This document shows, piece by piece, positions 8,036 to 36,124 of a stretch of 37,808 nt of DNA (its first letter is position 1; every line of letters starts with the position of its first letter). The DNA is from Pirellulales bacterium. GTDB lineage: Bacteria; Planctomycetota; Planctomycetia; Pirellulales; PALSA-1355. Position numbers and translations under genes: made by a program. The stretch is from the NCBI GenBank assembly GCA_040901665.1, contig JBBDYK010000145.1, forward strand, positions 1 to 37,808, read 5' to 3'. The notes under the pieces were generated by a model. It ran no database searches and was not told the DNA's origin. It was given only the letters and a program-made list of their open reading frames with translations.

Positions 8036-8054
8036 GTCGACAACAGACTCAACC

Positions 8055-10043: not shown

Positions 10044-10143
10044 CAGTTGGGTGGCACTGGCGTGTCGCCAGTGCAGTGCGAACACTGGCAAAATGCCGGT
10101 GCCATTCTGACGAGTGAGTGTGAAATCGGCAGGAGCTCGAAAG

Positions 10144-11940: not shown

Positions 11941-11989
11941 TAGGCCGTGTTCGTTGCGTATCTTTACGATTGCGACTGGGAACCTCTCG

Positions 11990-12208
11990 ATGGCAACAGG
12001 ACCGAACGAGATTATCAACGCTGCTCTAAAACTTTCAGACTCGGATCGGCTGCTGATCGCAACTCGCCTTTTGGATACCTTGCCCGACGAGTTTCAGTTT
12101 CTCGAAGATGACGCAGTCATGCTGGCTGAGCTTGAGCGACGTGCCAGCGATCCGAGTCCGACGATTCCGGCCGCCGAGATATTCATTGCCCGCACTGGCG
12201 GCGGCTAA
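11990..12208 (+). CDS. putative addiction-module (antitoxin-like) component, TIGR02574-like, 72 aa
   Basis: The pattern EIINAALKLSDSDRLLIATRLLDTLPDE....LAELERRASD....IPAAEIF matches the short 'putative addiction module component' family as I remember it. It lies within the long wrong-frame track ORF 11411..12208. The segment is AT-richer than its neighbours. Confidence 0.55.
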   Translation: MATGPNEIINAALKLSDSDRLLIATRLLDTLPDEFQFLEDDAVMLAELERRASDPSPTIPAAEIFIARTGGG

Positions 12209-12711: not shown

Positions 12712-12798
12712 GTCGACCTGGTTGACGTTCCTTCCCGTTCTCGGTGTCCTCGGTGTACTCGGTGGCCAATCCTAATTCAAGTGCGATGACCAACGGCG

Positions 12799-14361: not shown

Positions 14362-14499
14362 ACCTGGTTCGCTCCCTGCGAGAGTGTGCCATGAGCGCGC
14401 GCATTGCTCGAAAGATGCACGCGGCCTGCTTGATTACAGCGGACAGAAAACACGTCCGCCAGGAATCAGGATAGCGAATCGCTTTGGTCCACGCCGCGC

Positions 14500-14558
14500 A
14501 AAAAAATGAAAAAAATGTGTTCACCCCGCGAGGCCGCCGGGCCGCTGTCGTCTACAAT
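14500..14558 (+). promoter_or_regulatory. candidate promoter elements in the divergent ligase/dehydrogenase intergenic region
   Basis: There is a tandem 9-nt A-tract repeat, AAAAAAATG x2, at 14500-14517. This is striking in high-GC DNA. A TACAAT -10-like hexamer lies at 14553-14558, 45 nt upstream of ATG 14603. I could not place a convincing -35. Confidence 0.25.
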
Positions 14559-14602
14559 CACAACCGCCTGAGGAGGCAATTGCGAATCCGGGAGCCACCA
14601 CG

Positions 14603-15790: not shown

Positions 15791-15856
15791 CAAAGAAACG
15801 GGACGGCCTGGGAGCGCTTCGCCGCCCGTTCCGTTTTTCAGCCAGCAGGGTTCGCC

Positions 15857-21145: not shown

Positions 21146-22290
21146 AACGCTCGTTGAAATGTATCGCGCCGGCCGCTCTCGTGGTACTCTCGCTAGTGAC
21201 CATCTCCGCCCGGGCTGAAGAGGAAAAGTATCCCGCGCGCAACGCGCAGGCGCCGGCCGTCGGTCCGCAGACCGTGCGCGGCACATTCACCGTGGCGCCG
21301 GGACAATCGATCCAAGCGGCCGTCGATCGGGCTCGCCCCGGCGACCGCATCGAAGTGCTGCCCGGCACGTATAGCGAGAGTGTCACCATCGATTTCGACG
21401 ACATCGAGCTGGTCGGCGTCGTGCAAAACGGCGAGCGGCCCGTTCTCGATGGCAAGACCACCATGAATGACGCCGTGATCACCTCGGGAAATAACTTCGT
21501 CATCTCCGGCTTTGAAATTCGCGACTACAAGGGCAACGGCGTCGTCGTCAGCCAGGCCAAGAACGCCACCTTCAAGAATCTGGTCTGTCACAACACGGGC
21601 AAGTACGGCGTCTATCCCGTGCTCTGCCAGGGCGTGCTGGTCGAAAACTGCGTCGTGTCCGACGTGTGGGACGCCGGCGTCTATGCCGGACAGTGCCAGG
21701 ACGTCGTGATCCAGAATTGTGAGGGCTATCGCAATACCATCGGCATCGAAACCGAGAACTGCGTCAACGTGGTGATGGCAAACAACTCGGCCCACGACAA
21801 TTCGCTGGGCCTGCTGGTCGTGCTGCTGCCCGATTTGCCCACCACCATCGCCACCAACGCGCGCGTGATCAACAACCGCGTCACCAACAACAACTACCCC
21901 AACCTGGCGCCGCAGGGCAACATGGTCAGCATGGTCGAGCCCGGTAACGGCATCGTCATCAACGCGGCCGACAACACGGAAGTGACCAAGAACGAAGTGC
22001 GCGGCAACGGCTCCTATGGCATCGCCATGTATGCGTTGACCGACGTGTTTCCACCCGACCGCAAGCTGAACGTCGAGCCCAATCCCGACCGCAATTTCAT
22101 CCACGACAACAAGCTCTCGGACAACGGCGGCAACGTTTCGAAGCGCTTGGGCTCGCTGGGCGCCACCGGCGGCGATCTGTTCTGGAGCGGCAAAGGCGCC
22201 GGCAACGGCTGGAACGAGGCCACCGACAAAACGTTCCCCGAGAAGCTGCCCGGCTGGGGCGGAGTGCCGGCAGCAGGCGGCGGAGATTGA
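21142..22290 (+). CDS. secreted right-handed parallel beta-helix repeat protein, paralogue of the C-terminal domain of the preceding gene
   Basis: ATG 21142 overlaps the upstream stop (ATGA at 21142-21145), and GGAGG at 21131-21135 lies 6 nt upstream. The signal peptide is MKRSLKCIAPAALVVLSLVTISARA. Long stretches align without gaps to residues ~470-800 of the upstream protein (FTVAPGQSIQAAVDRARPGDRI vs FTVRPGQSIQAAVDRCRAGDRV). Confidence 0.85.
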   Translation: MKRSLKCIAPAALVVLSLVTISARAEEEKYPARNAQAPAVGPQTVRGTFTVAPGQSIQAAVDRARPGDRIEVLPGTYSESVTIDFDDIELVGVVQNGERPVLDGKTTMNDAVITSGNNFVISGFEIRDYKGNGVVVSQAKNATFKNLVCHNTGKYGVYPVLCQGVLVENCVVSDVWDAGVYAGQCQDVVIQNCEGYRNTIGIETENCVNVVMANNSAHDNSLGLLVVLLPDLPTTIATNARVINNRVTNNNYPNLAPQGNMVSMVEPGNGIVINAADNTEVTKNEVRGNGSYGIAMYALTDVFPPDRKLNVEPNPDRNFIHDNKLSDNGGNVSKRLGSLGATGGDLFWSGKGAGNGWNEATDKTFPEKLPGWGGVPAAGGGD

Positions 22291-22433: not shown

Positions 22434-24575
22434 ATGCGCCAGCGCACCCGATTCTTGGCACTTCCCGCCGCGCTCTTGCTGATGACGATCAACGCAACGG
22501 CCGCCGAGCGCGCCGCTAGCTCGGCATATCCCGATGCTCCCACGGCCGACGTGGTCGACGATTACCACGGCACGCGCGTGCCCGATTTGTATCGCCCGCT
22601 GGAAGATCCCGATGCGCCCCAATCGCGCGCCTGGATCGACGCCGAGAACAAGATCACGTTCGCCTTCCTCGAAGGCATTCCCGCCCGCGAGCCGCTCAAA
22701 GAGCGCCTGACCAGGCTGTGGGACTACGAAAAGTTCGGCGTGCCGTCGCGCGAGGGCAGGCGCTACTTCCTCACCCGCAATAGCGGACTGCAGAACCAAA
22801 GCGTGCTCTACACGCTCTCGTCGTTGGATGCCGAGCCGAAAGTGCTGCTCGACCCCAACACGCTATCGAAGGATGGCACCGTGGCATTGTCCGGATTGGC
22901 GATCAGCGAAGACGGCAGCAAGATGGCCTATGCGTTGGCCGATGCCGGCAGCGATTGGATCACCTGGCACGTCCGCAACGTGGCCAGCGGCCTGGACACC
23001 GACGACATCGTGCGCTGGAGCAAGTTCTCCGGCGCCAGTTGGACCAAGGACGGCGCGGGCTTCTTCTATGGACGCTATCCCGAGCCCAAGGAAGGCGAAG
23101 ACTTGCTGGCCTCGAACTATTTTCAAAAGCTCTACTACCACAAGCTGGGCACGCCGCAAGCCGACGACGCGCTGATCTATGAAACGCCCGACCACAAGGA
23201 GTGGCACTACTCGAACCAGGTCAGCGACGACGGCAAATACCTGATCATCGGCGTGGCTCGCAGCACCGAAGACGTCAACATGCTGCTCTACAAGCGGCTG
23301 GCCGAGGCCGATGCGCCGCTGGTCCCGCTCATCGACAACTTCGACGCCGGCTACGAGTTCATCGACAACGACGGCCCCGTGTTCTACCTCAAGACCAATC
23401 GCAACGCTCCGCGCAGCCGCGTCATCGCCATCGACACGCGCAAGCCGGCCGAAGAGCACTGGCAAGAGTTGATTCCGCAAGCCGACGAGCCGCTCACCGC
23501 CGCCAGCCTGGTCGGCGGTCGCCTGTTTGCCACCTACTTGAAAGACGCCCACTCGCAAGTCAAGGTGTTCGATCCGGCCGGCAAGTTCGAGCGCGAGGTG
23601 AAATTCCCAGGGCTAGGCACCGTCAGCGGTTTCGATGGCAAGCGTTCCGACAAGGAAACGTTCTACAGCTTCACTTCGTTCACCGTGCCCGACACGATCT
23701 ATCGCTACGACGTGGCCAGTGGCAAAAGCAGCGTCTTTCGCGCGCCGCAGGTGGATTTCAAGCCCGAGGACTACACTACCCAACAGGTTTTCTACGCCAG
23801 CAAAGACGGCACCAAGGTGCCGATGTTCATCAGCTATAAGAAGGGCCTGGCGAAGAACGGACAGACTGCCACGTTCCTGTACGGCTACGGCGGCTTCAAT
23901 ATTCCGATTACGCCGGCCTTCAGCGTGGCCAACCTGGTATGGATGGAAATGGGGGGCGTGTTTGCCGTGCCGAACCTGCGCGGGGGCGGCGAGTACGGCG
24001 AGGAGTGGCACAAGGCCGGCACCAAGCTGCAAAAGCAAAACGTGTTCGATGACTTCATCGCCGCGGCCGAGTGGCTCATCGCCCACAAGTACACTTCCAC
24101 GCCCAAGCTGGCCATCGGCGGCGGATCCAACGGCGGATTGCTGGTGGGCGCTTGCCTGACGCAGCGTCCCGATCTTTTCGGCGGCACGCTGCCGGCCGTG
24201 GGCGTGCTCGACATGCTGCGCTTCCACAAGTTCACCATCGGCCACGCCTGGGTCGACGACTACGGCTCGAGCGACAACGCCGACGAGTTTGCGGCGCTCT
24301 ATAAGTACTCGCCCCTGCACGCCATCAAGAGCGGCACGTGTTATCCGCCCACCATGATCACCACGGCCGATCACGACGACCGCGTGGTGCCGGCGCACAG
24401 CTTCAAGTTCGCCGCCGCGCTGCAAGCCGCGCAAGGCTGCGACAAGCCGATCCTGATCCGCATCGAAACCCGCGCCGGCCACGGCGCCGGCAAGCCCACC
24501 AGCAAGCGCATCGAAGAGGCCGCCGACCGCTGGGCCTTTCTGGTGAAAGTGCTGGGAATTGACTGGCCGGGATAG
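22434..24575 (+). CDS. prolyl oligopeptidase (peptidase S9A), secreted
   Basis: Signal-like N-terminus. The N-terminal propeller pattern is DDYHGTRVPDLYRPLED. The catalytic Ser is in GGSNGGLL, the Asp in TADHDDRV and the His in RAGHGAG. Confidence 0.9.
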   Translation: MRQRTRFLALPAALLLMTINATAAERAASSAYPDAPTADVVDDYHGTRVPDLYRPLEDPDAPQSRAWIDAENKITFAFLEGIPAREPLKERLTRLWDYEKFGVPSREGRRYFLTRNSGLQNQSVLYTLSSLDAEPKVLLDPNTLSKDGTVALSGLAISEDGSKMAYALADAGSDWITWHVRNVASGLDTDDIVRWSKFSGASWTKDGAGFFYGRYPEPKEGEDLLASNYFQKLYYHKLGTPQADDALIYETPDHKEWHYSNQVSDDGKYLIIGVARSTEDVNMLLYKRLAEADAPLVPLIDNFDAGYEFIDNDGPVFYLKTNRNAPRSRVIAIDTRKPAEEHWQELIPQADEPLTAASLVGGRLFATYLKDAHSQVKVFDPAGKFEREVKFPGLGTVSGFDGKRSDKETFYSFTSFTVPDTIYRYDVASGKSSVFRAPQVDFKPEDYTTQQVFYASKDGTKVPMFISYKKGLAKNGQTATFLYGYGGFNIPITPAFSVANLVWMEMGGVFAVPNLRGGGEYGEEWHKAGTKLQKQNVFDDFIAAAEWLIAHKYTSTPKLAIGGGSNGGLLVGACLTQRPDLFGGTLPAVGVLDMLRFHKFTIGHAWVDDYGSSDNADEFAALYKYSPLHAIKSGTCYPPTMITTADHDDRVVPAHSFKFAAALQAAQGCDKPILIRIETRAGHGAGKPTSKRIEEAADRWAFLVKVLGIDWPG

Positions 24576-24662
24576 TGGCTTCTGATATAGCTTGTGTGAG
24601 CGCTTGGGCTCGGTCAAGAGGTACTCTGCGCGATCAGTATTACATCTCCCCATTGCAACCGC

Positions 24663-25088
24663 ATGCACATGGATCAACTTAATTGGCTTGTCAACCATCG
24701 CTTCCAAGAGGCGCTAAGGTATGAGTTTAGTTGGGCATTCGTGTTCGACGAGGGTGCCAGCGCGACCGTGGAATGCCTCTGGCGGCTTGTTGAAAACGGC
24801 CGAATTCGCGTCACCAGTCAGGATGACGGCCATCAATTTGGCCTGCCGGCGGCCATCGATGGTGTTCTTGAAGTAAACCAAAGGCTTACTGGCGCGATGG
24901 TTGACTCCGTTGCTTTGAGCGAAGGATCGCTAGATTTGGAGATTCGATTCGACACCGGTCACGCTCTTCAGTTTATCGCGGTCTCGTCGGGGTACGAGGC
25001 GTGGAGCATGAATGATCGGTCGCGACAATTTATTGCAGTTGGCGGTGGTGAACTGGCTGTGGTAGGAAAGAACTCGAGCGAGGCGTGA
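24663..25088 (+). CDS. hypothetical small protein (141 aa), low-GC orphan; immunity-protein-like pattern
   Basis: AT-richer than its neighbours: line 24661-24720 is 29/60 G+C by hand count. The pattern W.F.F......ECLWRL...GRI..TS.D..Q.FG ... LDLEIRFD.GH.L......SGYEAW resembles small beta-rich DUF6188/immunity-type proteins as I remember them. This is weak. Confidence 0.5.
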   Translation: MHMDQLNWLVNHRFQEALRYEFSWAFVFDEGASATVECLWRLVENGRIRVTSQDDGHQFGLPAAIDGVLEVNQRLTGAMVDSVALSEGSLDLEIRFDTGHALQFIAVSSGYEAWSMNDRSRQFIAVGGGELAVVGKNSSEA

Positions 25089-25114
25089 TACTGTCGCGAC
25101 TCGATTTCAAACTG

Positions 25115-25132
25115 GCTCACACCGGTGTGAGC
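25115..25132. repeat. 18-nt perfect palindrome between convergent genes
   Basis: GCTCACACCGGTGTGAGC reads identically on both strands. It lies between the stop of 24663..25088(+) and the stop of the DUF885 gene (-). There is no T-run. Confidence 0.4.
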
Positions 25133-25188
25133 ATGCTCACCCACCGCTTTCGCGGCGTGTGAACATGGCACCCATCGCGGTGGGTCTC

Positions 25189-26967
25189 TCAATCCGACGC
25201 CCGCGTCGCCTCGATATACGCCTTCACATTTTCTTCCAGCACGTCCAGCGGCACGGCGCCGCTGCCCAGCACGACGTCGTGAAACTGGCGCACGTCGAAC
25301 TTCTCGCCCAGTTGCTCCTCGGCTTGCTTGCGCAGCGCGCGAATCTTCAGCTCGCCCATCTTATAGGCCGTCGCCTGGCCGGGCCACGAGATATAGCGAT
25401 CCACCTCGGCCGCAATGTTGTGCAACGTGAGCGCCGTGTTGTCGGCCATGAACTGGATCGCCCGTTCGCGCGTCCAACCCAGGTAGTGCATGCCCGTGTC
25501 GACCACCAGCCGGCAGGCCCGCCACATCTCGTAGCTCAGCCGCCCGAAGTCGCGATAAGGATCTTTGTAAAAGCCGATTTCCAAACCCAGCCGCTCGGCA
25601 TACAGTCCCCAGCCTTCGACGAACGCCGTGGGATGCGCAAACCGCCGGAACTCCGGCAGCCCGGTCAGCTCCTGTTGCAGCGCGATCTGCAAGTGATGTC
25701 CCGGCACGGCTTCGTGCAGCGACAGCGCTTCGATCTCGAACAGCGGCCGGCTCTTCAGATTGTAGGTGTTCACGTAATAGAACCCGGCCCGCGTACCGTC
25801 GCCGGCCGGCGGCTGATAGTAGGCCGTCGTCGTGCGCGGCGCGATGAACGCCGGAATCTCGCGAACGCCATAGGGCGTGCGCGGCAGCGTCTTGAACAGC
25901 TTCGGCAGCTCGCCGTCGATCTGCTTCAGCACCAGACCCGTTTCCTTCATCAACTGCTCGGGCGTGTCGACATAAAACTTGGGATCGGTGCGCAAGTACT
26001 CGACAAACGCCGCGAAGTCGCCGTCGAAGCCCACCCGCTCGATCACGTCCTGCATTTCGGCCTTGATCCGCTTCACCTCGGCCAGCCCCGTCTCGTGGAC
26101 TTGCTCGGGATCGATGTCCAAGGTGGTGAAGTGCTTCACGCGATAGCGATAAAACGCGCGTCCCTGCGGCAGGGCACTGGCGCCGATCTGTTGCCGGCAG
26201 GCCGGCACGTACTCGTCCGTCATGAACGCCAGCAGCTTGCGATAAGCGGGCGCCACGCTCTCGGCAATCGCCGCCTTGCCCTCGGCCGTCAAGCGCGCGC
26301 GGTCTTCCGGACCGATGGAGTCGGGCCAATCCACGAAAGGAGCAAACAATAAGCTTCGCGTCGGATCGTCGACATCGTGCGGCGCAATCGCCTCGTCGAT
26401 ATCGGTCAGCACGACTGCTGGCGTGGTGAAGCCCTGTTTGATCCCCTCGCGCATCAGCTCGATGTGATCGTCGGTGTACTGTGCAAAAGCGCGCAGCCGC
26501 GCCACGTAGTTCTCGTAATCCTTGAGCGTCTTAAGCGGCGTGTGCTTGGGCAACTCTGGAAACGAAACGTGAAAGCCCGAGCGATTGGTGATCGGCATCA
26601 AGTACGATTGGAACTCGAACTCGCTGGCGCCGTCACGTCGTTGCCGGCGAAAGATGTCGTAGTTCACTTGCTCGGCCCGCGACAGTTTGTCGCGCTCGAT
26701 GGCGTCCAACCGCTTGAGAATCCCGCGCTCCACGTCGTTGCGGCGCGCCTGATCGGCCAGGGTCTCGCGCGGCAGCCGGTCGTTATAGCGCGCGTCCCCC
26801 GCGTGCGTGGCGAACAGCGGGTCCTCGGCCAGCGCGAACTCCCAGCTTTCGGCCAGCAGCTTGGCCAGTTGCTCGCTCGGCGAGTCATCGGCCCAGGCCG
26901 GCGCGACGCCAGGCAAGAGGAGAACGGCCGCGGCCGCCAGCGTTCGAAACTTGTTGGAGTGCAACAT
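25189..26967 (-). CDS. DUF885-family protein (predicted secreted metallopeptidase-like)
   Basis: A HExxGH-type motif is present (LHEAVPGHHLQ). Length and overall pattern are typical of DUF885. I start it at ATG 26967, giving the signal peptide MLHSNKFRTLAAAAVLLLPGVAPAWA. The track extension to 27066 would overlap the upstream gene. Confidence 0.75.
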   Translation of the reverse strand: MLHSNKFRTLAAAAVLLLPGVAPAWADDSPSEQLAKLLAESWEFALAEDPLFATHAGDARYNDRLPRETLADQARRNDVERGILKRLDAIERDKLSRAEQVNYDIFRRQRRDGASEFEFQSYLMPITNRSGFHVSFPELPKHTPLKTLKDYENYVARLRAFAQYTDDHIELMREGIKQGFTTPAVVLTDIDEAIAPHDVDDPTRSLLFAPFVDWPDSIGPEDRARLTAEGKAAIAESVAPAYRKLLAFMTDEYVPACRQQIGASALPQGRAFYRYRVKHFTTLDIDPEQVHETGLAEVKRIKAEMQDVIERVGFDGDFAAFVEYLRTDPKFYVDTPEQLMKETGLVLKQIDGELPKLFKTLPRTPYGVREIPAFIAPRTTTAYYQPPAGDGTRAGFYYVNTYNLKSRPLFEIEALSLHEAVPGHHLQIALQQELTGLPEFRRFAHPTAFVEGWGLYAERLGLEIGFYKDPYRDFGRLSYEMWRACRLVVDTGMHYLGWTRERAIQFMADNTALTLHNIAAEVDRYISWPGQATAYKMGELKIRALRKQAEEQLGEKFDVRQFHDVVLGSGAVPLDVLEENVKAYIEATRASD

Positions 26968-26998
26968 CAATCGTCTCACGGTTTCCAGTGTCAGCCGT

Positions 26999-28261
26999 TC
27001 AGCCCACGAGCGTGTTGGGTTGTTTCCAGTGCAGGCGCGCAACGTACACGCTGCCGTCGCTTCCATACTTCTCGCAGCCGACCGGCTGCATCCACTCGGC
27101 CACCGTCACCCAGGTCTCATCGCGCGTGACGTCCGTCACGCCAAAGTTCCCCAATCGGGCCCCGCGCTCGGGCACCAGCACTTGCTCGGTCGCGCGGATC
27201 ACGCACAGCTCTTCAGGATCGACTTGCGCCATCACCAGTGGCGCCCGATGGCGAAACACGTGGTCGTTGTTCAGGCCTCGCCGTGTGTAAACCAAAAACA
27301 CGCCGTCGCTGTGCGTCACCCAATGGGCCTGCGTATTGTAGCTGCCCAATTCGCTGCCGTCGTCAAACGTCCACGCCCGTAGCGGCCCGAAGTGCAGCCC
27401 GTCGCGGCCGCGGGCCACATACGCCCGGCGATCGTGCCGAACGGTCAGCAGATAATCGTCGCCGAACCGCGTCAGCGACGGCTCGCCCACGCCCCGCGTT
27501 TCGTCGTCGATGCCCAATTCGCTGCCGTGCTCCAGGTACTTCAATTCGTGCCCGTCGAAGCCGCACCGCATGACCGCCACCCGCGAGTTGCTTTCCGGCG
27601 GGCGAAAATAGAACGGCAGCAGAATCGTCCCGTCCGCCTCGTCGTAACGCTGTGTGCAGCCCGCGCCCGAGTTGTAGAACTTGGTCGCGTCGGGCATCGG
27701 CAGCTTCTGCCATGCCGACCAATCGTCGGCCGCCGGATCGTAGCTGGCAAACACCGACTGCCGCGGCCGCTGCGGCACGACTCTCCACTCGGGCGTATAG
27801 ACGACTGAGTGGCCCGTCGCCAGCAGCGACTTGCTGGCCGCGTGCCAGCCGGGCGTCAGATCGCTGGCCGCTACCGGCCGGCGCACGCCGTCGATCGTCT
27901 CCTCGCGCGGCGCCATCGGCTTGAGCTCATTGACGTCGCTCCACGTCTGGCCCATGTCGTCTGTCATGAGTCCGAACACGCCGCGAAACACGTCGCTGCC
28001 GGCCAGGTCCAGCGAGTTCATGGTCATCACCACGCGCGGCCGACCGTCGCGTCCGGCCCCCGCCACGATCCCCGCCCGCGGATGGCACCAGCAGCGCTTG
28101 CCGTCAAAGAACTTCGTCGGCACGTCGCGCGAGAGCCGATAGGCCAGCGCATTGTCTTCGTCTGCCACGGCCCGCCCGCGCCGCACTCCCATCGGCACCG
28201 CCAGCAATGACACCCCAGCCACAAGCGACGACTGCAAAAACGCGCGACGAGAATTTGGCAT
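26999..28261 (-). CDS. BNR/Asp-box beta-propeller protein, sialidase-like glycoside hydrolase, Tat signal
   Basis: I start it at ATG 28261. The Tat motif is SRRAFLQSSLVAGVSLLAV. There is an Asp-box, TDDMGQTW (S/T-x-D-x-G-x-T-W). The 97-aa upstream extension in the track is junk. Confidence 0.65.
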   Translation of the reverse strand: MPNSRRAFLQSSLVAGVSLLAVPMGVRRGRAVADEDNALAYRLSRDVPTKFFDGKRCWCHPRAGIVAGAGRDGRPRVVMTMNSLDLAGSDVFRGVFGLMTDDMGQTWSDVNELKPMAPREETIDGVRRPVAASDLTPGWHAASKSLLATGHSVVYTPEWRVVPQRPRQSVFASYDPAADDWSAWQKLPMPDATKFYNSGAGCTQRYDEADGTILLPFYFRPPESNSRVAVMRCGFDGHELKYLEHGSELGIDDETRGVGEPSLTRFGDDYLLTVRHDRRAYVARGRDGLHFGPLRAWTFDDGSELGSYNTQAHWVTHSDGVFLVYTRRGLNNDHVFRHRAPLVMAQVDPEELCVIRATEQVLVPERGARLGNFGVTDVTRDETWVTVAEWMQPVGCEKYGSDGSVYVARLHWKQPNTLVG

Positions 28262-28279
28262 GGCTGGAATCCGCCAGCG

Positions 28280-28501
28280 ATGGCAGGGCAGGGGGCATGG
28301 GAACCGAGCAAATCCGACCGCATCCATTCTACCACGCCGCTGCTCGTGACGATCGCTCGCGCCTACAAGCATTTTGGCGACGCGCTCGACGAGCGCAGGC
28401 CGCTGTTCGACGCCCGCGCACGGGAGATCGCCAAGCAAGAGATCGAGCACGAACGCTGGGTGCAGTACTGCCAGGAGCGTGCGATTTTTGGCCCGCATTG
28501 A
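28280..28501 (+). CDS. possible small protein (up to 73 aa) upstream of the toxin gene
   Basis: The C-terminal 50 codons (LLVTIARAYKHFGDALDERRPLFDARAREIAKQEIEHERWVQYCQERAIFGPH) have protein-like composition and strong GC3 bias. The start is uncertain: ATG 28280 or an internal GTG near 28340. No family recognised. Confidence 0.3.
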   Translation: MAGQGAWEPSKSDRIHSTTPLLVTIARAYKHFGDALDERRPLFDARAREIAKQEIEHERWVQYCQERAIFGPH

Positions 28502-28565
28502 TCGCGGGCCATTCGACGCTTTCTCCCTCGATTCAGACGGCAATGCGCGCACCTAGAGGCACGAC

Positions 28566-30122
28566 ATGACGGACGACGCGTATTCGCGCCAGCTTTTGCA
28601 GGAGGCCTACGAAGACGGCTGCCGTCGTTGCGCCGCCGACTTGCAGCAGTTCGTCACGCCGCTGGAAGCCTGGATGGACCGCCTGTTGGAAGAGCCGTTG
28701 GCGCCCGACTGGCGCGACCAGCTCAACGACTACCTCGCCGAGCAGGAGCCCAAAGGCTACCGCATCGAGCCCGAGAATCGCTGGGTGCTGGAAGCAGAGA
28801 TCCTTGACAGCGCCGCGCAACGGGTGTGGGCGGCGGGGAAGACGTCGAAAGAAACAGGACCGTCCTCCCCGGCAGTGCAGATGGCTCAGGAAGACGCTGC
28901 GCGCGACAAAGCAGAGCAACAGCAGGAGCGTGAATTCCGTTGGTTTGCCCGTGAGGCGTCCGCGCTCGAACGGAAGCGGCTTGGTCTTAGCGACGGTGAG
29001 CGAGCCGAATATGAACGGTATCTGATCGAGGCTCAGCGAAGCCTGGCGCGCGGCGAGCCGGCCGTTCCCGCTCCTGACTTCTATTTGGAAAAGAAAGCGC
29101 GATATGACGAGCAACAGGCCGAGGCCGACCGCAACACGCCGACGATCAGGGCATCGAGATTGTCGGACCTGGAGTGGGAGATTCAGACGATCGTCGCGAA
29201 GTTGAGCCATCGCGCCCTGCTCTCCGACGCCGAATATCAATCGCTCGTTGCGAAGCTGCGCTTGAAGCAACGGGAGCTGTACTACCAAACCGGTGATTGG
29301 AACTTCGTCACGCGGACCATGGACCGGCTGCTCAATCCCGCCTGGGACGGCACGGGCACGCTCAACGACATTGCGATCGGGCTTGGAGGGTTCAGCGGTG
29401 GCGCGCCAGGGCTGTCAAATTCAGCCGGCAAGCAACCACTGGCATCTCCCCCAAGACGCGGTCGCCGTCCGGCGCGCAAGCCCGGCAGATCGCCATCCGA
29501 TAGTCAGCACAGACCAAATGACCGAGCCGGCTCAAGTCCGCCTTCAGCAACCCAACCAAGCACGACGAGGCCCGCCGAGACCTCGACTTCGCGCACGCCG
29601 CCGCAGTCGAGCGTGACGGCTAGCGAAGCACTCAGTATTGCAGCGCGGATAGCAGAGCTTAAGGCCAAGCTTCCGAAGACAGTCGCCGAGCGACTCGACA
29701 GCCTGGCTCCCAGCAAGCGCAAGGCTCTCATGTCAAAGGCCATTGCCGCCAAGACGGACGACGAAGCGCTCGATATAATCGAGCAAGGCTTGAAAGCGGG
29801 GATCGCGGCTGATGATAAGGTCAATTCTGCCTATCGCTCGGTCGAGTCAAACAAGGTCAACTACGTTGGGATCACGAACAACATCGCTCGCAGAGCTATT
29901 GAGCAGCTGCGAAGTCGGGGAATCATCATTGAAAAGATCCTCGATAAGCTGTCTCGGAGTGACGCACGCGCCGTCGAACAGGCACTGATCAAGATCCACG
30001 GACTACAAAGGAGCGGAGGCACCCTCGAAAACAGAATCAACAGTATTGCAAAGTCGAACCCTAAATATGCCCATCAGCTCAAACGTGGTTTTGAGCTACT
30101 GCAATCCATCGGTTATCGCTAG
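28566..30122 (+). CDS. polymorphic-toxin-like protein: unrecognised helical N-terminal region, P/S/T/R-rich linker, C-terminal GIY-YIG/URI-fold nuclease-like module
   Basis: The 518-aa ORF has no signal peptide. A low-complexity linker lies at about 29400-29620. The last 101 aa carry Y-x10-YVG (AYRSVESNKVNYVGIT), RR (NNIARRAIEQ), E (ARAVEQALI) and N (LENRINS), in the order and spacing of the GIY-YIG superfamily. Immunity-type genes follow immediately. Confidence 0.6.
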   Translation: MTDDAYSRQLLQEAYEDGCRRCAADLQQFVTPLEAWMDRLLEEPLAPDWRDQLNDYLAEQEPKGYRIEPENRWVLEAEILDSAAQRVWAAGKTSKETGPSSPAVQMAQEDAARDKAEQQQEREFRWFAREASALERKRLGLSDGERAEYERYLIEAQRSLARGEPAVPAPDFYLEKKARYDEQQAEADRNTPTIRASRLSDLEWEIQTIVAKLSHRALLSDAEYQSLVAKLRLKQRELYYQTGDWNFVTRTMDRLLNPAWDGTGTLNDIAIGLGGFSGGAPGLSNSAGKQPLASPPRRGRRPARKPGRSPSDSQHRPNDRAGSSPPSATQPSTTRPAETSTSRTPPQSSVTASEALSIAARIAELKAKLPKTVAERLDSLAPSKRKALMSKAIAAKTDDEALDIIEQGLKAGIAADDKVNSAYRSVESNKVNYVGITNNIARRAIEQLRSRGIIIEKILDKLSRSDARAVEQALIKIHGLQRSGGTLENRINSIAKSNPKYAHQLKRGFELLQSIGYR

Positions 30123-30127
30123 CTGTT

Positions 30128-30595
30128 ATGACAATTCGAAAGCAACGACCAAAGATCGGCGACCTGCTTGAAATCAAATTGCCACGCGGTCTGGCATATG
30201 TTCAATACGTGGGACGGCACGCCGAGTACGGCGACGCAATCTGGGTCCGTCCAACCGTGTATCGAATTCGTCCCGCGGACTTCGGGAAATTGATCGACAA
30301 GGCGGGATATCTGACGTTTTATCCGGCCCGCGCCGCTGTATCGCAGGGCCTAACCCAAGTGGTTGCATCGTCACAGTTGCCGCATTCGATTAGCATTCCT
30401 CATCGCTATCGCCGTGTTGGCGCTCGCAGCCGCGATGGCAAGGTGTTGACTTGGATTATCGTCGATGACGGTCGGGAAACGTTGCGGCACACGCTGAACG
30501 AATCGGAGAGAAAGTTGCCGATCGCCGCAATTTGGAACCACCAAATGCTGTGCGACAGAATTGACGATCAATGGTTTCCGGAATCGGAGGGGTAG
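30128..30595 (+). CDS. immunity-protein-like (Imm26-like N-terminal pattern), candidate cognate immunity
   Basis: It starts 5 nt after the toxin stop. The N-terminal KIGDLLEIKLPRGLAYVQYVGRH...GDAIWV matches the 'GD..ei.L.dG.yay..v' pattern of a polymorphic-toxin immunity family as I remember it. GC is low: line 30121-30180 is 25/60. Confidence 0.55.
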   Translation: MTIRKQRPKIGDLLEIKLPRGLAYVQYVGRHAEYGDAIWVRPTVYRIRPADFGKLIDKAGYLTFYPARAAVSQGLTQVVASSQLPHSISIPHRYRRVGARSRDGKVLTWIIVDDGRETLRHTLNESERKLPIAAIWNHQMLCDRIDDQWFPESEG

Positions 30596-30598
30596 GCA

Positions 30599-30955
30599 AT
30601 GGCAAGTGACTCTGACGCACTGGACCAACTCGCAGAGGTCTCGGATATCAGCAAGGTGCACGCGGTGCAACACTACCTGTACTTCCCCTCGAAGATCGCT
30701 GCCAGGCGAGCTGCGTCCGATATTGTTAAGCAGAAATATGTCGTGACAGAGCGACTCGGCGCCGATCTCAAGAATTGGCTCGTGCTCGCCGAGCATCGAA
30801 TTGTTCCGACACTAGAGGCGTTAACCGCCGCCAGAGCCGCGCTTGAAAAGTGTGCCACAAAATTCGGAGGGGAGTACGACGGTTGGGAAGCGGCAGTGCG
30901 ATCAATCAACGCGGACGCGACAGTGGATACAGAAAGCAACAATCCGCTTGGCTGA
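30599..30955 (+). CDS. RraB-like (regulator of ribonuclease activity B / DUF1260 fold) protein, immunity-type
   Basis: GGAGG at 30586-30590 lies 8 nt before the ATG, and the gene starts 3 nt after the upstream stop. Its HAVQHYLYF.....A...A......Y.V ........ KFGGEYDGWEA matches the RraB family hallmarks (H-x-IEH-x-F ... YDGW). Confidence 0.65.
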   Translation: MASDSDALDQLAEVSDISKVHAVQHYLYFPSKIAARRAASDIVKQKYVVTERLGADLKNWLVLAEHRIVPTLEALTAARAALEKCATKFGGEYDGWEAAVRSINADATVDTESNNPLG

Positions 30956-31080
30956 TCGTTACGTTTGTCACGGGCGAAGAGCGCGGATGGATACTCCTCA
31001 AGCGGGCCTACGGCGGTATCTACTACCTCGCGGACGGCATCGAGGAGTTTTTCGGCTTGCTGCGCGAACGAAGCGAGTAG
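30952..31080 (+). pseudogene. remnant of a third immunity-type gene (SMI1/KNR4-like C-terminal tail), no usable start codon
   Basis: The frame-1 translation LIVTFVTGEERGWILLKRAYGGIYYLADGIEEFFGLLRERSE* resembles the C-terminal tail of SMI1/KNR4-type immunity proteins. The upstream part of track ORF 30850..31080 overlaps the RraB-like gene out of frame and reads as junk. There is no ATG/GTG/TTG after 30955 until near the end. Confidence 0.3.
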
Positions 31081-31120
31081 CGGACCATGCTTGCAGGAGG
31101 TTGTCAGGGCACTCGTCCCC

Positions 31121-31921
31121 TCACCACGCCGTCCAACCGCCATCCACCACCAGGTTGTGGCCCGTCACGTAACTGCTGGCGTCGGAGGCCAGGTACACGA
31201 CGGCGCCTTTCAGCTCGTGCGGTTGACCCATGCGGCCTAGCGGAGTGCGCTGTTCGAGCCGTGTCACCAGCTCGCGCGGCGCTTGCGGCGAGGGGAACGG
31301 GCCGGGGCTCAGGCAGTTCACGCGCACGCCGTCCTTCGCCCAGTACACGGCCAAATGCCGCGTGAGATGGATGATCCCGCCCTTGAGCGCGTGATACGCG
31401 GCCGGACTCGCCGCGCCGATGCCTTCATACGCTTCCGGATAAGAGCCGACCAGCCCGTACATCGAACCGAGCATGATCACGCTGGCCGGCGATCCTCGTT
31501 CGACCGCGTGATCGCGCAGCAGCCGGGCCAACAAAAAATAGCCCGTGGCGTTGGCCAACTGGCGCGTGAACTGCTCGCCCGAGACATTGCGCCAATCGTC
31601 CGCCAGGGGCTCGTGTCCGTTGTTGACCAGGATGTCGAGGTGCCCGGCCGCGGCGACGGCCGCAGCGAACCCGCGCTCGATCGACGCCTCGTCCATCTGA
31701 TCGATTGCCACGCCCACGTGCCGACCCGCTTCACGTCCGCCGAGCGTGGCGGCGGCGGCCCGCGCCTTCGACGCATCGCGACTGCCAACCACGACGCGGC
31801 CGCCGACTTCGGCCAAGGCCTCGGCCAGCGCGCGCCCCAGATGCCCGCTGGCGCCGGTGACCAGTGCCACGCGACCGCCCAGATCGAAAAGCTGCTGCAC
31901 GCTGGTCGAAGTGTTTGTCAT
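31121..31921 (-). CDS. short-chain dehydrogenase/reductase (SDR)
   Basis: The motifs are TGASGHLG (TGxxxGxG), NNG, and the catalytic YHALK (YxxxK). ATG 31921 overlaps the upstream stop (ATGA). The track extension to 32149 is junk. Confidence 0.85.
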   Translation of the reverse strand: MTNTSTSVQQLFDLGGRVALVTGASGHLGRALAEALAEVGGRVVVGSRDASKARAAAATLGGREAGRHVGVAIDQMDEASIERGFAAAVAAAGHLDILVNNGHEPLADDWRNVSGEQFTRQLANATGYFLLARLLRDHAVERGSPASVIMLGSMYGLVGSYPEAYEGIGAASPAAYHALKGGIIHLTRHLAVYWAKDGVRVNCLSPGPFPSPQAPRELVTRLEQRTPLGRMGQPHELKGAVVYLASDASSYVTGHNLVVDGGWTAW

Positions 31922-32934
31922 CGGTTGGGCTCGTCGCACTCCAAGATTTCCCAAGCGCGCCGTTCGGCGCTGCGCAGAATTGCCAGGTTCGCCGTCAGCG
32001 TTTGTCGCGCTTCGTCCAGCGTACATGCCGGCGGCGACTTGCCTTCCACCGCGTCCAGCAGCGCGTCTGCTTGCCGCACGAACAGGGTGTCGCGCTCCAG
32101 CGGTCCCACCGGCTCGTTGGTCCACGCGCCGCCCGGCTCGACCATCCATCGCCAGCGGCTCTCATGATACTCGAATCGCGCCGTTCCGCGCGTGCCGATC
32201 ACCGTGATCGTCGATTCGTTGGGCGCCTGGTGCTGGTTCAAACTGTAGGAGCCCATCACCGCGCCATGCCGGGCAATGACGTGCGCGGTGTCTTCCACCA
32301 AGACGCCTTCGAGCGCCTGGTGGTTTACGTCGGCCACCAGCCGATCGATCGGCCCGACGAGCCACTGACCGGCGTTGATCACGTGCGTCAGCGAATCCTG
32401 CACCGCGCCGCCGCCGCTGGCGCGATCCTTGTAATAGATCTCCCGATACGCGGGCCGATAGAGCGGAAAGTGCTGACCGCTGGTGGCCACGATCTCGACG
32501 GGCGTGCCAAAGTGTCCCTGCTGGACCGCCGCGCGCATGGCCGCCAGCGCCGGATGCGCGCGATACACGTAGGCCACCGACGCCGTCACGCCAGCCCGGT
32601 CGACGGCTTGCAACAACTCATCTACGCCGTCGAGCGAAGTGCTCAAGGGCTTTTCGATGAGCAAATGCGCGCCCGCTCGCACGGCCGCCAGCGCCAGCGA
32701 CACGTGCAAGTGCGCCGGCGTCGCAATCACCACCACTTCTGGCTCCGCCGCCAGCGCGTCTTCGAACCGCTCGAATGCGTCGTCGACTGCATACTGCTTG
32801 GCCACGCTGATACGCACCGCCGCGTTGGTTTCGCACACGCTCAGTCGTGCTCGACCCGTCGCGCCAAAGCAGCGCACGTGTCGCTCGCCGATCGAACCGG
32901 CGCCGACGACGAGCACGCGGTGCGCCGCCGTCAT
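31918..32934 (-). CDS. Gfo/Idh/MocA-family NAD(P)-dependent oxidoreductase
   Basis: The N-terminal Rossmann segment is HRVLVVGAGSIGERH. The EKP motif (LLIEKPL) is typical of the family. ATG 32934 overlaps the aldolase stop (ATGA) and its own stop overlaps the SDR start. Confidence 0.85.
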   Translation of the reverse strand: MTAAHRVLVVGAGSIGERHVRCFGATGRARLSVCETNAAVRISVAKQYAVDDAFERFEDALAAEPEVVVIATPAHLHVSLALAAVRAGAHLLIEKPLSTSLDGVDELLQAVDRAGVTASVAYVYRAHPALAAMRAAVQQGHFGTPVEIVATSGQHFPLYRPAYREIYYKDRASGGGAVQDSLTHVINAGQWLVGPIDRLVADVNHQALEGVLVEDTAHVIARHGAVMGSYSLNQHQAPNESTITVIGTRGTARFEYHESRWRWMVEPGGAWTNEPVGPLERDTLFVRQADALLDAVEGKSPPACTLDEARQTLTANLAILRSAERRAWEILECDEPNR

Positions 32935-33755
32935 GATTTCTTCTCCATCGCCGCGGCCTCGGCCGCCAGCCGATTCTCGAACTGGAAGCCAAGTTGAGCA
33001 TAGCGCGCTTGGACGTCCGTGAAGCCTTGCTTCACCAGCAAGATGTCGGCGTTGTGGCAAACGAACGTCGCGCCCAGATCCAACAGCATCTGCGAGTGCT
33101 CGGGCGAGCCGCTGGTGGTGCCCCAGGCTTTGCCCACCCGCTTGGCCACGTCCGCCACGCGTCGATACGCGTCTTGAATGATCTGGTGATTGAACTGAAA
33201 CGGAATGCCGGACAAGATGCTCAAATCGGCCGGCCCGATCATCAGCACGTCGACGCCCGGCACCTGGGCGATCGCCTCGACGCTCTCCAGCGCTTTGGGC
33301 GACTCGATTTGCACGATCAGCAAGGTATGTTCGTTGGCCAGCTTGATGTATTCGGCCATCGGCACAGCGCAATAGGGCGCGTCCGGATTTGCGCCATCGA
33401 TTCCGCGCTCGCCCAGCGGCCCGAACTTGGCCCAGCGCACCACTTCGGCGGCCTCGTCGGCCGACTCGCAGCGCGGGTACATGATGCCTTGCGCGCCGGC
33501 TTCCAGCAGCCGTCCCATCCGCATGAACTCTCCCTTGGCCGGCCGCACGATCACGTCGGAGCTGCCCACCCGCGCCGCGCGCATCAATTGATTGGCCGTT
33601 TCCGTGCTGGTCGAGTGATGCTCCAGGTCCATCCAGATGCCGTCGAAGCCCATCAGGCTGGTGAGCTCATAGACGCTGGGGTCAGTGAAGTGGCAGGTCA
33701 CGATCAGCGCCGGCTCGCCCCGGCGCAGCTTGGCTTTGACGCGGCTGAATCGCAT
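32931..33755 (-). CDS. HpcH/HpaI-family (class II, 2-keto-3-deoxy-acid) aldolase
   Basis: The pattern is GFDGIWMDLEH...VRP......I.R.LEAGAQGIM.P......EA.......KF.PLGERG ... VQIES..A......I...PGVD...IGP.DLS. Confidence 0.8.
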   Translation of the reverse strand: MRFSRVKAKLRRGEPALIVTCHFTDPSVYELTSLMGFDGIWMDLEHHSTSTETANQLMRAARVGSSDVIVRPAKGEFMRMGRLLEAGAQGIMYPRCESADEAAEVVRWAKFGPLGERGIDGANPDAPYCAVPMAEYIKLANEHTLLIVQIESPKALESVEAIAQVPGVDVLMIGPADLSILSGIPFQFNHQIIQDAYRRVADVAKRVGKAWGTTSGSPEHSQMLLDLGATFVCHNADILLVKQGFTDVQARYAQLGFQFENRLAAEAAAMEKKS

Positions 33756-33808
33756 GAATCGTTGGTTCCTTGGAATATCGGAGAGGGAAAACGTCGTTGG
33801 TCGTTGAA

Positions 33809-36124
33809 CTAGGTGAGTCGCGCAAAACCCGTGTGGCGCACGCCGCCCGGCAGCCGCGATTCTACGTCATTGCGGCGAATCGCAGCGGCCAATTCGCCAA
33901 AAACTTCATCCAGCGCAGCCAGACAGGCATCCACGTGACGCGGCTGGTGCGCCAGGCTCGGGTAAAACCCGCCGCCGAATAAATAGCCGCGCGCCAGCAT
34001 TCGCACGCTTACCAACGTGCTCAGCGCGGCCGCTTGCGGATGATCGAACGACAGCGAGAGCAGCGCCGCATGTCCGCTGGCCAGCGCCGGCACGCCATGT
34101 TCGTGTCCCAGCGCCAGCCATCCTGCACGTATCAGGCCGCCGATCCGCTGGGCGTGGGCCGGAGCGTCCGCGGTTTGCAACTTGCGAATCGTGGCCAGCG
34201 CCGCCGTGGGGCCAACCCCTTCGGTCCAATAGGTACTGGACACGAACGACTCCTGCGCCGCCTGCATCACACTGGCGCGACCGATCACGGCCCCGATCGG
34301 ATGTCCGTTGCCCAGCGCCTTGGCGAACACGGCCACATCGGGCGCCACGCCATAGCGCAAGTGCGCGCCGCCGAGCGCGAAACGCCAGCCGGCCGAGATC
34401 TCGTCGAACACCAGCGCCGCTCCGCACTCGTCGGCCAGCCCCCGCACACCCTCCAGAAAGCCTGGCTCCGGCTGCCGATTGCGCGTCGGTTCCATCACGA
34501 TGGCCGCCAGCTCGCGACCGTGCTCGCGCACGTGGCGCTGCAACTCATCGAGCTTGTTGTAGCCAAATGGCAGCGCCGTGCCGGCCAGACCAGCGGGCAC
34601 GCCGCGCGGCGATAGCCCCGTTAGCAAGTGTCCGGCCAGTCGATCGCCATCGTCGGCCGCCGCATCCGCCGGCAGATTCGCGGCCAGATACCAATCCGAC
34701 CAGCCGTGATATCCACAAAAGGCCACGCGCTGGCGGCCGGTCGCCGCGCGCGCCAAACGCACGGCAACCGCCATCGACTCGCCGCCGGTGCGCGTGAACC
34801 GCGCTTGCTCGGCCCAGGGGTGCAGCTCCAGTAACAACTCGGCCAGCTCCAACTCCTCGGGCGAGTTCAGCGTACACATCGATCCCAGTTGCACGCGCCG
34901 CACCACGGCGTCGGTGACGTCCGGATCGGCGTAACCCAATAGACAGGAACCAATGCCCGAGGTCGTCATGTCGATGAATCGCCGGCCGTCGAGATCGACC
35001 ACTTCGCAACCGCGCGCCTCGGCGTAGTAAGCGGGCCAGACGCCGGGTGCAACCATCTCAGGCCGCTTGCTCAGCAGTTGTGTCCCGCCGGGAATGACCG
35101 CTTTCGCGCGCTGGTAAGCGGCATGCGACCGCGTTCCGTCCGGCGAGGGAGTTAAGCCCAATAGTTGCCGCGCGTTGCTGCCGAAGATGTGTTCGACGTC
35201 CGCGTCGCCAAGCCGCAGCGTGCCGCACGCCTGCTTCAGTGCCAATAGCGACTCGATGCCCACCAGCACCGGCCTGGCAAAAGCCGACTTGTCCCACGCC
35301 ACGTTGTCCTCGAGCAGCCAGGCAAAGCCATCTCCGATGCTGACGCAGCGTCCCGGCATTTCGCTCACGGGAAAATCCGTGCCGAAGAGCAATCTCCGCG
35401 GACCGAATTCGCGCAAGATCGCTTCCAATGACGCGGCTTCACAAACGGCTGAAGTGTCGAAGTACACATTGTCGAGCCCACGCAAGCTGCCGATGCCCTC
35501 GACCGTGTGCCGCGCGCAGAAGCCTCGCGCGGCATGCGCCAAGATCAGCTTCGCGCCCGGATAGCGCAAACAGCGCTCGCGCAGGTATTCCTGGTTGACC
35601 GGATCGGCCAAAGCTCGGGCGCGCACGATGTGTAGCATGATGACCAGGCCGCGCCGGTCCGCCAGCTCCCAGGCCCAGTCGGGCAGAAAACTCTCTGTCG
35701 GCGCCTCGAACGTATTCGGCTGATCCGCGAACACGTGATACACCTTGAATCCCGCGAAGCGGTCGGCGTCCAGGTTTGCTACCACGCGCGCCGGATCGTC
35801 GCAGGGCGCGATCAAGAGCAAGGCGCGCGAGCCCGCCAGCGGCGCGATCTGATCGGCCACGAAACGATTGGCACTGGCCAATTCGAGCCCGACTTTGGGA
35901 ATGGTGAAGGCCAGCCCACCCGTCGGACGCCGATCTCCCATCCACTGCTCGACGCCGCGACAATAGGCCTGCCAGCTCGCGTTGCCCGCGGCGTCCAGCG
36001 CGCCCGGCGGCAACGCGGCCGTGGCGTCTTCGCCACGATAGAGGTGCAAGTGCGCGTCGAAGCCCCCGGGCGGCACGAACGAGCGCAAATGCTTGTCGAA
36101 CAGCGCCGACGATTCGATTGGCAT
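33809..36124 (-). CDS. fusion protein: N-terminal amidohydrolase_2 (lactonase/decarboxylase-type TIM-barrel metal hydrolase) + C-terminal class III PLP aminotransferase-fold domain
   Basis: I start it at ATG 36124. The N-domain metal ligands are FDAHLHL (HxH), MLHI, ILAHAA and FGTDFPV. The junction lies near aa 322-335 (about nt 35120-35160). The C-domain resembles glutamate-1-semialdehyde-aminomutase-like aminotransferases (FTRTGGESMAVAVRLAR, CGYHGW), with the PLP lysine context VAVFAKALGNGHPIG. Confidence 0.8.
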   Translation of the reverse strand: MPIESSALFDKHLRSFVPPGGFDAHLHLYRGEDATAALPPGALDAAGNASWQAYCRGVEQWMGDRRPTGGLAFTIPKVGLELASANRFVADQIAPLAGSRALLLIAPCDDPARVVANLDADRFAGFKVYHVFADQPNTFEAPTESFLPDWAWELADRRGLVIMLHIVRARALADPVNQEYLRERCLRYPGAKLILAHAARGFCARHTVEGIGSLRGLDNVYFDTSAVCEAASLEAILREFGPRRLLFGTDFPVSEMPGRCVSIGDGFAWLLEDNVAWDKSAFARPVLVGIESLLALKQACGTLRLGDADVEHIFGSNARQLLGLTPSPDGTRSHAAYQRAKAVIPGGTQLLSKRPEMVAPGVWPAYYAEARGCEVVDLDGRRFIDMTTSGIGSCLLGYADPDVTDAVVRRVQLGSMCTLNSPEELELAELLLELHPWAEQARFTRTGGESMAVAVRLARAATGRQRVAFCGYHGWSDWYLAANLPADAAADDGDRLAGHLLTGLSPRGVPAGLAGTALPFGYNKLDELQRHVREHGRELAAIVMEPTRNRQPEPGFLEGVRGLADECGAALVFDEISAGWRFALGGAHLRYGVAPDVAVFAKALGNGHPIGAVIGRASVMQAAQESFVSSTYWTEGVGPTAALATIRKLQTADAPAHAQRIGGLIRAGWLALGHEHGVPALASGHAALLSLSFDHPQAAALSTLVSVRMLARGYLFGGGFYPSLAHQPRHVDACLAALDEVFGELAAAIRRNDVESRLPGGVRHTGFARLT

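Follow-up and report, generated by a model that had tools for sequence, protein, structure and literature searches.

The DNA studied here (hereafter the window) is a contig of 37,808 nucleotides from a Pirellulales bacterium (JBBDYK010000145.1), in which a 2.9-kb islet on the plus strand, positions 28262–31120, interrupts a run of minus-strand genes. We suggest with good confidence that this region is a polymorphic toxin–immunity islet which codes for a toxin with an exchangeable nuclease tip and, directly downstream, for an Imm26-family protein which would act in immunity and an RraB-like protein which probably aids it. The islet consists of four intact and closely set open reading frames (ORFs) and one frame without a start codon, and all five features which a sequence-only reading of this DNA had listed for it are present. 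With the flanking genes they are as follows.

28280–28501, plus strand: small upstream ORF of 73 amino acids (aa), putative partner of the toxin; its C-terminal ~57 aa are conserved 5′ of related toxin genes
28566–30122, plus strand: predicted polymorphic toxin ORF of 518 aa, starting 64 nt past the small ORF
28566–29390, plus strand: N-terminal carrier (toxin residues 1–275) with two modules, the head (1–90) and a second module (98–275); all-helical in the structural model
29334–29369, plus strand: junction motif NPAWDGTGTLND (residues 257–268), the final conserved element ahead of the variable region
29391–29600, plus strand: Pro/Ser/Arg-rich low-complexity linker (residues 276–345), read from the sequence; GC content 0.668
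29601–29792, plus strand: helical pre-tip module (residues 346–409) with the motif AAKTDDEAxxII; GC content 0.594, the drop in GC content starting here
29793–30119, plus strand: predicted nuclease tip of the Tox-URI1 type with GIY-YIG fold (residues 410–518), assigned by signature residues, Pfam and Foldseek
30128–30595, plus strand: predicted divergent Imm26-family immunity gene, 155 aa, 5 nt past the toxin stop codon
30599–30955, plus strand: RraB-like (Imm-VC0424/DUF1260) gene, 118 aa, 3 nt past the 155-aa ORF
30952–31080, plus strand: 3′ remnant of an SMI1/KNR4 (SUKH) gene, start-less, with 42 aligned codons and a stop codon, overlapping the end of the 118-aa ORF
26999–28261, minus strand: left flank, a 420-aa gene called BNR-like, with a twin-arginine-type leader and without a Pfam match
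stop codon at 31121, minus strand: right flank, an adh_short gene which borders the islet

We propose that the toxin is built from the carrier, the Pro/Ser/Arg-rich linker, the helical pre-tip module and the exchangeable Tox-URI1 tip, in this order. The tip would enter a competitor cell and cleave nucleic acid there, most likely DNA. From what is known of the respective families, we infer that it would be a Mg2+-dependent nuclease which kills cells lacking the antidote, and that the producing cell would be protected by the Imm26-family protein binding to the tip; the RraB-like protein would probably aid this protection. The pre-tip and tip regions and the Imm26 and RraB-like genes have probably come jointly, by recombination, as a cassette of lower GC content. 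The incoming cassette would have displaced an older set of tip and immunity genes, from which nothing but ~42 codons at the end of an SMI1/KNR4 immunity gene is left.

Exchange of tip and immunity genes at one chromosomal site

The islet was compared with the contigs L088 (ENA ERZ869940), L001 (ENA ERZ25039495) and L083 (ENA ERZ13693045). Contig L088 aligns collinearly to the window left and right of the islet (window 27025–28132 corresponds to L088 15357–16464, and window 31123–32922 to L088 16676–18469), and in this contig the BNR-like gene and adh_short adjoin with ~84 nt between them and no islet. As both genes are neighbors at this empty site, the islet is an insertion.

The two other contigs carry an islet at the same site, in each case with different contents. 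L001 matches the window from 22500 to 29392 and from 31119 to 36124 at 70–85% identity, and window 29393–31118 is without similarity; the small ORF is present in L001 too, as is the toxin head (65% aa identity), and a different tip and an unrelated 105-aa gene follow. L083 is collinear with the window up to position 29413 and again from 30984, and contains the partner ORF and the head, an HNH-like tip, two paralogous genes of 120 and 122 aa, an intact 156-aa SMI1_KNR4 gene and finally adh_short. Thus, in three relatives (the window, L001 and L083) one head is found at one chromosomal site with three sets of tip and immunity genes, and as the head is the same and the tips and immunity genes differ, we conclude that the tip has been replaced as a cassette together with its immunity genes. 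The homology breaks on the left around residue 275 (nt 29392–29413) and on the right around 30952–30984. L083 lacks the 420-aa BNR-like gene found in L001 and L088 (69% aa identity), so the left border of the islet also varies between relatives.

The base composition of the islet changes within the toxin gene, as had been noticed from the sequence. The GC content is 0.63–0.66 in the flanks, 0.625 for toxin residues 1–275 (0.76 at third codon positions, GC3) and 0.506 for the tip (GC3 0.59), and amounts to 0.549 in the Imm26-like and 0.560 in the RraB-like gene. The 1560-bp stretch with the lowest GC content in the 37.8-kb window starts at 29501 (0.556 compared to a mean of 0.639, standard deviation 0.022). 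The sequence-only reading had taken this pattern as a sign of a swapped tip and immunity cassette, and the comparison with L001 and L083 bears this out, with the left homology break lying ~200 nt 5′ of the onset of the GC fall (~29600).

The start-less frame at the right border had been described as the tail of an SMI1/KNR4 protein, and this description also stands. Residues 111–152 of the intact 156-aa SMI1_KNR4 protein of L083 (10145–10615) align to window 30952–31077 with 57% identity over 42 aa (tblastn), the position at which nucleotide homology to L083 resumes lies inside the SMI1_KNR4 gene, and the GC3 of the fragment is host-like (0.79). On its own, the fragment has no match in Pfam or NCBIfam, and a word-based homologue search with it (46 aa) was empty. 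Likewise, blastp and tblastn of the fragment against 80 tip loci of GTDB representative genomes, on which all counts of tip-neighboring genes given below are based, yielded noise only. From the alignment to the L083 gene and the host-like GC3 it follows that the frame is the 3′ end of the resident immunity gene, which was cut by the incoming cassette, and we regard it as a pseudogene remnant of an SMI1/KNR4 immunity gene.

A truncated SUKH gene could also mean that the whole islet was acquired horizontally and is now a remnant in decay, without function. The upstream partner ORF, which with 73 aa is shorter than its counterparts in L083 (149 aa) and L085 (260 aa), and the lack of a promoter-like site point in the same direction. 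Nevertheless, we consider decay highly unlikely, as the four ORFs are intact and closely spaced, all signature residues of the Tox-URI1 family are kept in the tip, and the carrier head and the small upstream ORF are under purifying selection: the ratio of nonsynonymous to synonymous substitution rates (dN/dS) is 0.15–0.21 for the carrier and 0.18–0.27 for the small ORF, that is 0.15–0.27 for both. Furthermore, the promoter scan of the islet used a sigma-70-like model, which is not informative for planctomycetes.

The flanks of the islet contain no direct or inverted repeats beyond short chance-like ones and no integrase or transposase gene, and there is no excess of terminators at the islet. 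Two further contigs, L086 and L087, were considered as relatives with the same site and were rejected since they are non-syntenic here and without a toxin. Two of the sets found at the site deserve mention on their own. In L001 (6849–7197), neither the tip of the toxin P0002 (…YHLAKHGKG…GGYWTSDGRLVTFWD) nor the 105-aa gene downstream has a Pfam match; judged by sequence and position the two are an unclassified toxin–immunity pair. The paralogous genes of 120 and 122 aa in L083 (9325–10112) lie between the HNH-like tip and SMI1_KNR4, the first one without a Pfam match, and are probably duplicated cognate immunity genes.

The predicted nuclease tip and its immunity genes

The C-terminal tip had been called nuclease-like from the sequence, and the results agree with this. 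The Tox-URI1 family is characterized by the signature 'Y, YxG, R, [RK]xxE, N' (Zhang et al. 2012, PMC3482391). In an alignment of nine tips the residues Y423, Y433, G435, R443, E471, N489 and N492 (numbering of the window protein) are invariant and R468 is kept in seven of the nine rows; the window protein reads Y433-V-G435 and R468-A-V-E471 and so retains every residue of the signature. All nine aligned tips match the GIY-YIG family of Pfam (best E 2.8e-5). In the AlphaFold2 (AF2) model of the tip (predicted local distance difference test, pLDDT, 77), the top seven Foldseek matches in the PDB are all GIY-YIG domains of UvrC (probability 0.90–0.97). When the profile of the tip was compared with PDB sequences, the best match was a weak one to 2lwf (E 0.19), which we take to be the GIY-YIG domain of GRXS16; a PDB sequence search with the full toxin was uninformative. 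By signature and context the tip thus appears to be a GIY-YIG nuclease of the Tox-URI1 type, for which the support from the fold is suggestive rather than decisive.

The tip is not confined to this carrier. Its homologues (window residues ~410–518) recur at the C-terminus of Rhs (PF05593/PF25023), Fil_haemagg_2 (PF13332) and PT-HINT (PF07591) proteins, and a scan with each GTDB species represented by one genome gave 178 tip loci, in Myxococcota, Bacteroidota, Bacillota, Planctomycetota, Chlamydiota, Acidobacteriota, Pseudomonadota and other phyla. The pre-tip module with the motif AAKTDDEAxxII is common to the proteins P0005, which has the same tip, and P0015, which has an AHH tip, and P0067 contains a related form.

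The gene 5 nt downstream of the toxin had been considered immunity-like, and it can now be assigned to a family. In 75 of the 80 tip loci the gene adjoining the tip on its 3′ side codes for a homologue of the 155-aa protein (70 found by iterated searches with a profile hidden Markov model, HMM, and five more by tblastn). Pfam Imm26 is matched by eight of 24 aligned members of this protein family, in five cases above the gathering score, and hhalign aligns the clade of the window protein to the Imm26-positive clade with a probability of 99.6% (E 9.8e-24, 148 columns); the Imm26 profile compared with PDB sequences was uninformative. Imm26 is one of four immunity families listed for Tox-URI1 (PMC3482391), and where the tip is a different one, so is the immunity gene (Imm11, CdiI or SUKH). 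The position next to the tip in all but five of the 80 loci is what would be expected of a cognate immunity gene, and on these sequence grounds we assign the 155-aa protein to Imm26 as a divergent member and predicted cognate immunity protein.

Several loci contain more than one copy of such immunity genes. Arrays of Imm26 or Imm26–RraB paralogues are found 3′ of one tip in L004 (6284–7093 and 7577–8407), L023 (849–2313) and L059 (713–2404), and in L061 the unit of tip and immunity gene is duplicated (231–1027 and 4314–5110). These are typical poly-immunity arrays.

The next gene had been described as RraB-like, rightly so as its 118-aa protein matches Pfam RraB (PF06877) with 62.4 bits (cutoff 23.3, E 6.4e-17, profile positions 4–101 of 102); a match to a PDB sequence was not found. 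In 15 of the 80 tip loci an RraB-like gene follows Imm26, and the Imm26 proteins of these loci resemble the window copy more closely than those of the other loci. In other phyla RraB and Imm26 are fused, with 11 such ORFs of 256–276 aa over 10 loci from Archangium, Hyalangium and two Acidobacteriota. Adjacent and separate genes for Imm26 and RraB are present in the window, in the planctomycete loci L018 and L025 and in the contig of P0005, in the same order.

Since the Pfam family is named for an inhibitor of RNase E of E. coli, the gene might be a housekeeping regulator of RNase E with no relation to the toxin, placed here only by chance. This we regard as hardly plausible. The protein is far below the cutoff of the NCBIfam model for the RraB equivalog, the RNase E inhibitor (NF008393, 15.2 vs 82 bits), the gene lies within the low-GC cassette and elsewhere accompanies Imm26 in the 15 loci or is fused to it in the 10 mentioned above, and the syntenic contigs L001, L083 and L088 do not have an RraB-like gene at the site of the islet. 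In addition, a subset of the DUF1260 proteins has been put forward under the name 'Imm-VC0424' as possible immunity proteins, without a toxin partner being given (PMC3482391). Because it is fused to Imm26 in 10 loci, the RraB-like gene is probably part of the immunity function, and we suggest that its product is probably a second immunity component with a role jointly with Imm26.

In the window the two immunity ORFs share one reading frame, with only a TAG codon and a single further codon (GCA) before the ATG of the RraB-like gene (30593–30601); the corresponding genes of L018 and L025 do not share a frame. The in-frame layout of the window may be a coincidence or the result of a recent split, or may make the gene pair a candidate for readthrough.

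The carrier, its partner and the question of export

The N-terminal carrier of the toxin (residues 1–275) is 65% identical to that of P0002 from L001 and 55% identical to that of P0003. An exhaustive HMMER search of 1.84e9 cluster representatives yielded 47 clusters of head relatives at E ≤ 1e-3. The head alignments found no relatives in two metagenome scans, and none of the 80 tip loci contains the head. Toxin residues 1–409 contain no Pfam or NCBIfam domain, and the head has no sequence or fold match in the PDB, the fold search giving only chance matches of coiled-coil-like character. The AF2 model of the carrier consists entirely of α-helices (pLDDT 68, with a low predicted template modelling score, pTM, of 0.37).

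The C-termini which have been examined in this family are diverse. They comprise an AHH tip followed by Imm11, a DNase tip similar to that of the contact-dependent inhibition (CDI) toxin EC869 with CdiI and an orphan Tox-REase-5 cassette downstream, two tips with HExxH motifs, an HNH-like and a URI2-like tip, and several unclassified ones. The motif NPAWDGTGTLND closes the conserved part in ten family sequences (nine of them distinct; regular-expression search) with differing C-terminal sequences, and its residues N257, P258, G262, G264 and D268 are invariant in the alignment of the head family. The Pro/Ser/Arg-rich linker is similar in P0003, P0047 and P0052–54. An unannotated tip of ~140 aa at the C-terminus is common to P0007, P0052, P0053, P0054 and P0074; it has no Pfam match and contains a PD-(D/E)xK-like pattern (…PHPSHV…VIYWG.KIG.HG.DVVSYNL.TK.VTLWDVK.R…), by which it may represent a new family of toxins with restriction-endonuclease fold.

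The small upstream ORF accompanies the carrier in its closer relatives, with tblastn aa identities of 77% in L001, 83% in L085 and 60% in L083 and L084, and ends 21–64 nt before the toxin start. Its product had no match in Pfam, NCBIfam or PADLOC. A 262-aa ORF of L089, located 5′ of a distant member of the head family, was considered as a homologue of this partner and was rejected as the two have no detectable similarity; the partner ORF is thus conserved only among the closer relatives. From its sequence and position we suggest that the small ORF may code for a partner of the carrier, that is a chaperone or adaptor. As far as the databases and the literature searched show, the carrier module and its partner ORF are undescribed.

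A number of findings weigh against the reading of the islet as an exported nuclease toxin with its immunity genes. The tip of the window itself scores below the gathering threshold of Pfam PF01541 (16.6 bits, E 0.0098, threshold 22.6 bits), and its Foldseek matches are modest (E 0.05–0.3, template modelling (TM) score 0.39–0.56; for the best ones, with a probability of 0.96–0.97, E ~0.05 and TM 0.41–0.48). The 155-aa protein of the window has no Pfam match at E ≤ 1, Imm26 (PF15428) included, and no NCBIfam match. The RraB-like gene is missing from 65 of the 80 tip loci and is thus not needed for immunity in general. With respect to export, the toxin has no signal peptide or hydrophobic segment (maximal 19-aa hydropathy 0.78), and no secretion or trafficking domain was found in the Pfam, NCBIfam, PDB and fold searches. 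As had been stated from the sequence, no known secretion-system genes are present among the ORFs of the window scanned against Pfam, and none were found beside related loci. That the toxin is exported at all is assumed by analogy to other polymorphic toxins.

In particular, a toxin without signal peptide, transmembrane segment or known trafficking domain, the lack of secretion genes in the window and in related loci and the location of the islet alone inside a metabolic operon would also fit an intracellular toxin–antitoxin, addiction or abortive-infection module, in which the nuclease is not exported but freed inside the producer, for example upon phage attack. We consider such a module unlikely. 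The defence-system models of PADLOC match none of the four islet proteins, and the same pair of tip and Imm26 also goes with exported toxins, namely those with Rhs, haemagglutinin-repeat and PT-HINT carriers. Moreover, a conserved head, a hypervariable tip, an immunity gene, orphan cassettes and neighboring SUKH, Imm11 and CdiI genes are the architecture of polymorphic toxins (PMC3482391). We hence favor a polymorphic toxin that would be delivered to other cells.

The head relatives P0005, P0006, P0044, P0045 and P0073 have transmembrane-like segments in their mid-region (19-aa hydropathy 1.75–2.04); the closest relatives of the window toxin are, like the window toxin, without hydrophobic segments. 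The hydrophobic mid-regions of some relatives may bear on translocation across a membrane. In the literature searched there is no study of intercellular toxin delivery in planctomycetes.

A more far-reaching proposal would be that the helical head, the motif NPAWDGTGTLND and the upstream ORF together represent an undescribed delivery class, confined to Pirellulales-like Planctomycetota and with an export unrelated to the type V, VI and VII secretion systems (T5SS, T6SS, T7SS) and to Rhs, and that the protein with RraB fold is a true second immunity subunit which acts with Imm26 against Tox-URI1. Taken as a whole, this proposal is possible but seems rather doubtful to us.

The remainder of the window outside the islet consists of Atu/Liu-type catabolic genes and other metabolic genes, as seen by a Pfam scan of its ORFs. 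The Atu/Liu-type set (1479–16939) comprises a thiamine pyrophosphate (TPP) enzyme, an enoyl-CoA hydratase, a carboxyltransferase, AtuA, a biotin carboxylase with a BT_MCC_alpha domain, an AMP-binding ligase and two acyl-CoA dehydrogenases. Between this set and the islet (18692–22290) lie two neighboring right-handed beta-helix/NosD-like genes, the first of which is fused to a di-haem CCP_MauG cytochrome c peroxidase; the gene pair is also kept in L083, L087 and L088. The closest named relatives of an S9 peptidase encoded near the islet come from metagenome-assembled genomes of Pirellulales (74–77% identity), and contig L082 holds N_methyl/SBP_bac_10 genes, which are typical of planctomycetes. 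The host is a Pirellulales-like planctomycete.

Comparison with known systems

Several elements of the islet are already known: the Tox-URI1/Imm26 pair, which was predicted in 2012 and is in itself ordinary, SUKH remnants and the swapping of cassettes. With the pairs described (PMC3482391) the islet shares the signature of the tip, the Imm26 gene, the order of toxin and immunity gene and the occurrence of the tip on Rhs, filamentous-haemagglutinin and HINT carriers. It differs from them as its carrier is an undescribed helical region and not an Rhs protein, CdiA, a T6SS effector or TcdB, as its Imm26 protein is too divergent for the Pfam model, and as a second, RraB-like gene is added. The Tox-URI1 table of the same study omits Planctomycetes.

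The classification of polymorphic toxins follows the delivery module at the N-terminus, and every newly recognized module has given a lead to a route of delivery. The cell envelope of planctomycetes is unusual. A rare head which is restricted to this phylum, has no signal peptide and is combined with at least eight different tips would be a concrete handle on toxin delivery in planctomycetes. A precedent for a class defined by a previously unassigned N-terminal domain are the TANFOR toxins of Bacteroidetes, which are likewise phylum-restricted, carry many different tips including GIY-YIG, and for which the export route has only been hypothesised (PMC7073777). Most TANFOR proteins have signal peptides and are encoded beside type IX secretion system (T9SS) substrates, and the class has led to a proposed link to this system (PMC7073777). 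On the contrary, the head of the islet toxin has neither a signal peptide nor informative neighbors, and there is no sequence link to TANFOR in Pfam or NCBIfam.

The LXG toxins exported by T7SS offer another analogy. LXG toxins are accompanied by small helical upstream partners in the LXG/Lap arrangement. By comparison, the islet toxin would resemble them in its helical N-terminus, the lack of a signal peptide, the exchangeable tip, the downstream immunity gene and the small upstream ORF. However, the islet proteins have no LXG or WXG100 match in Pfam and the head has no fold match, T7SS genes such as one for an EssC-type ATPase are present neither in the window nor in the related loci, and the host is a planctomycete.

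Among characterized proteins, the T6SS effector TepC of Yersinia breaks down DNA in vitro, and TipC, which confers immunity to it, contains an Imm26 domain (PMC10833071). This pair is comparable to the islet as a DNase effector with Imm26-domain immunity. Nevertheless, no GIY-YIG domain can be recognised in TepC, T6SS is its means of delivery, and no T6SS is evident at the islet.

Finally, the 118-aa protein clearly belongs to the Pfam family of RraB of E. coli and VC0424 of Vibrio. In contrast to these proteins it is, as judged from its NCBIfam score, no RraB orthologue, and it is tied to Tox-URI1 and to fusions with Imm26. Imm-VC0424 has been listed for Firmicutes, Fusobacteria and Proteobacteria only (PMC3482391). 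The specific association of Imm26 and RraB is undescribed as far as the databases and the literature searched show, and the Imm26–RraB fusions for the first time place the 'Imm-VC0424' (DUF1260/RraB-fold) domain in a specific toxin context.

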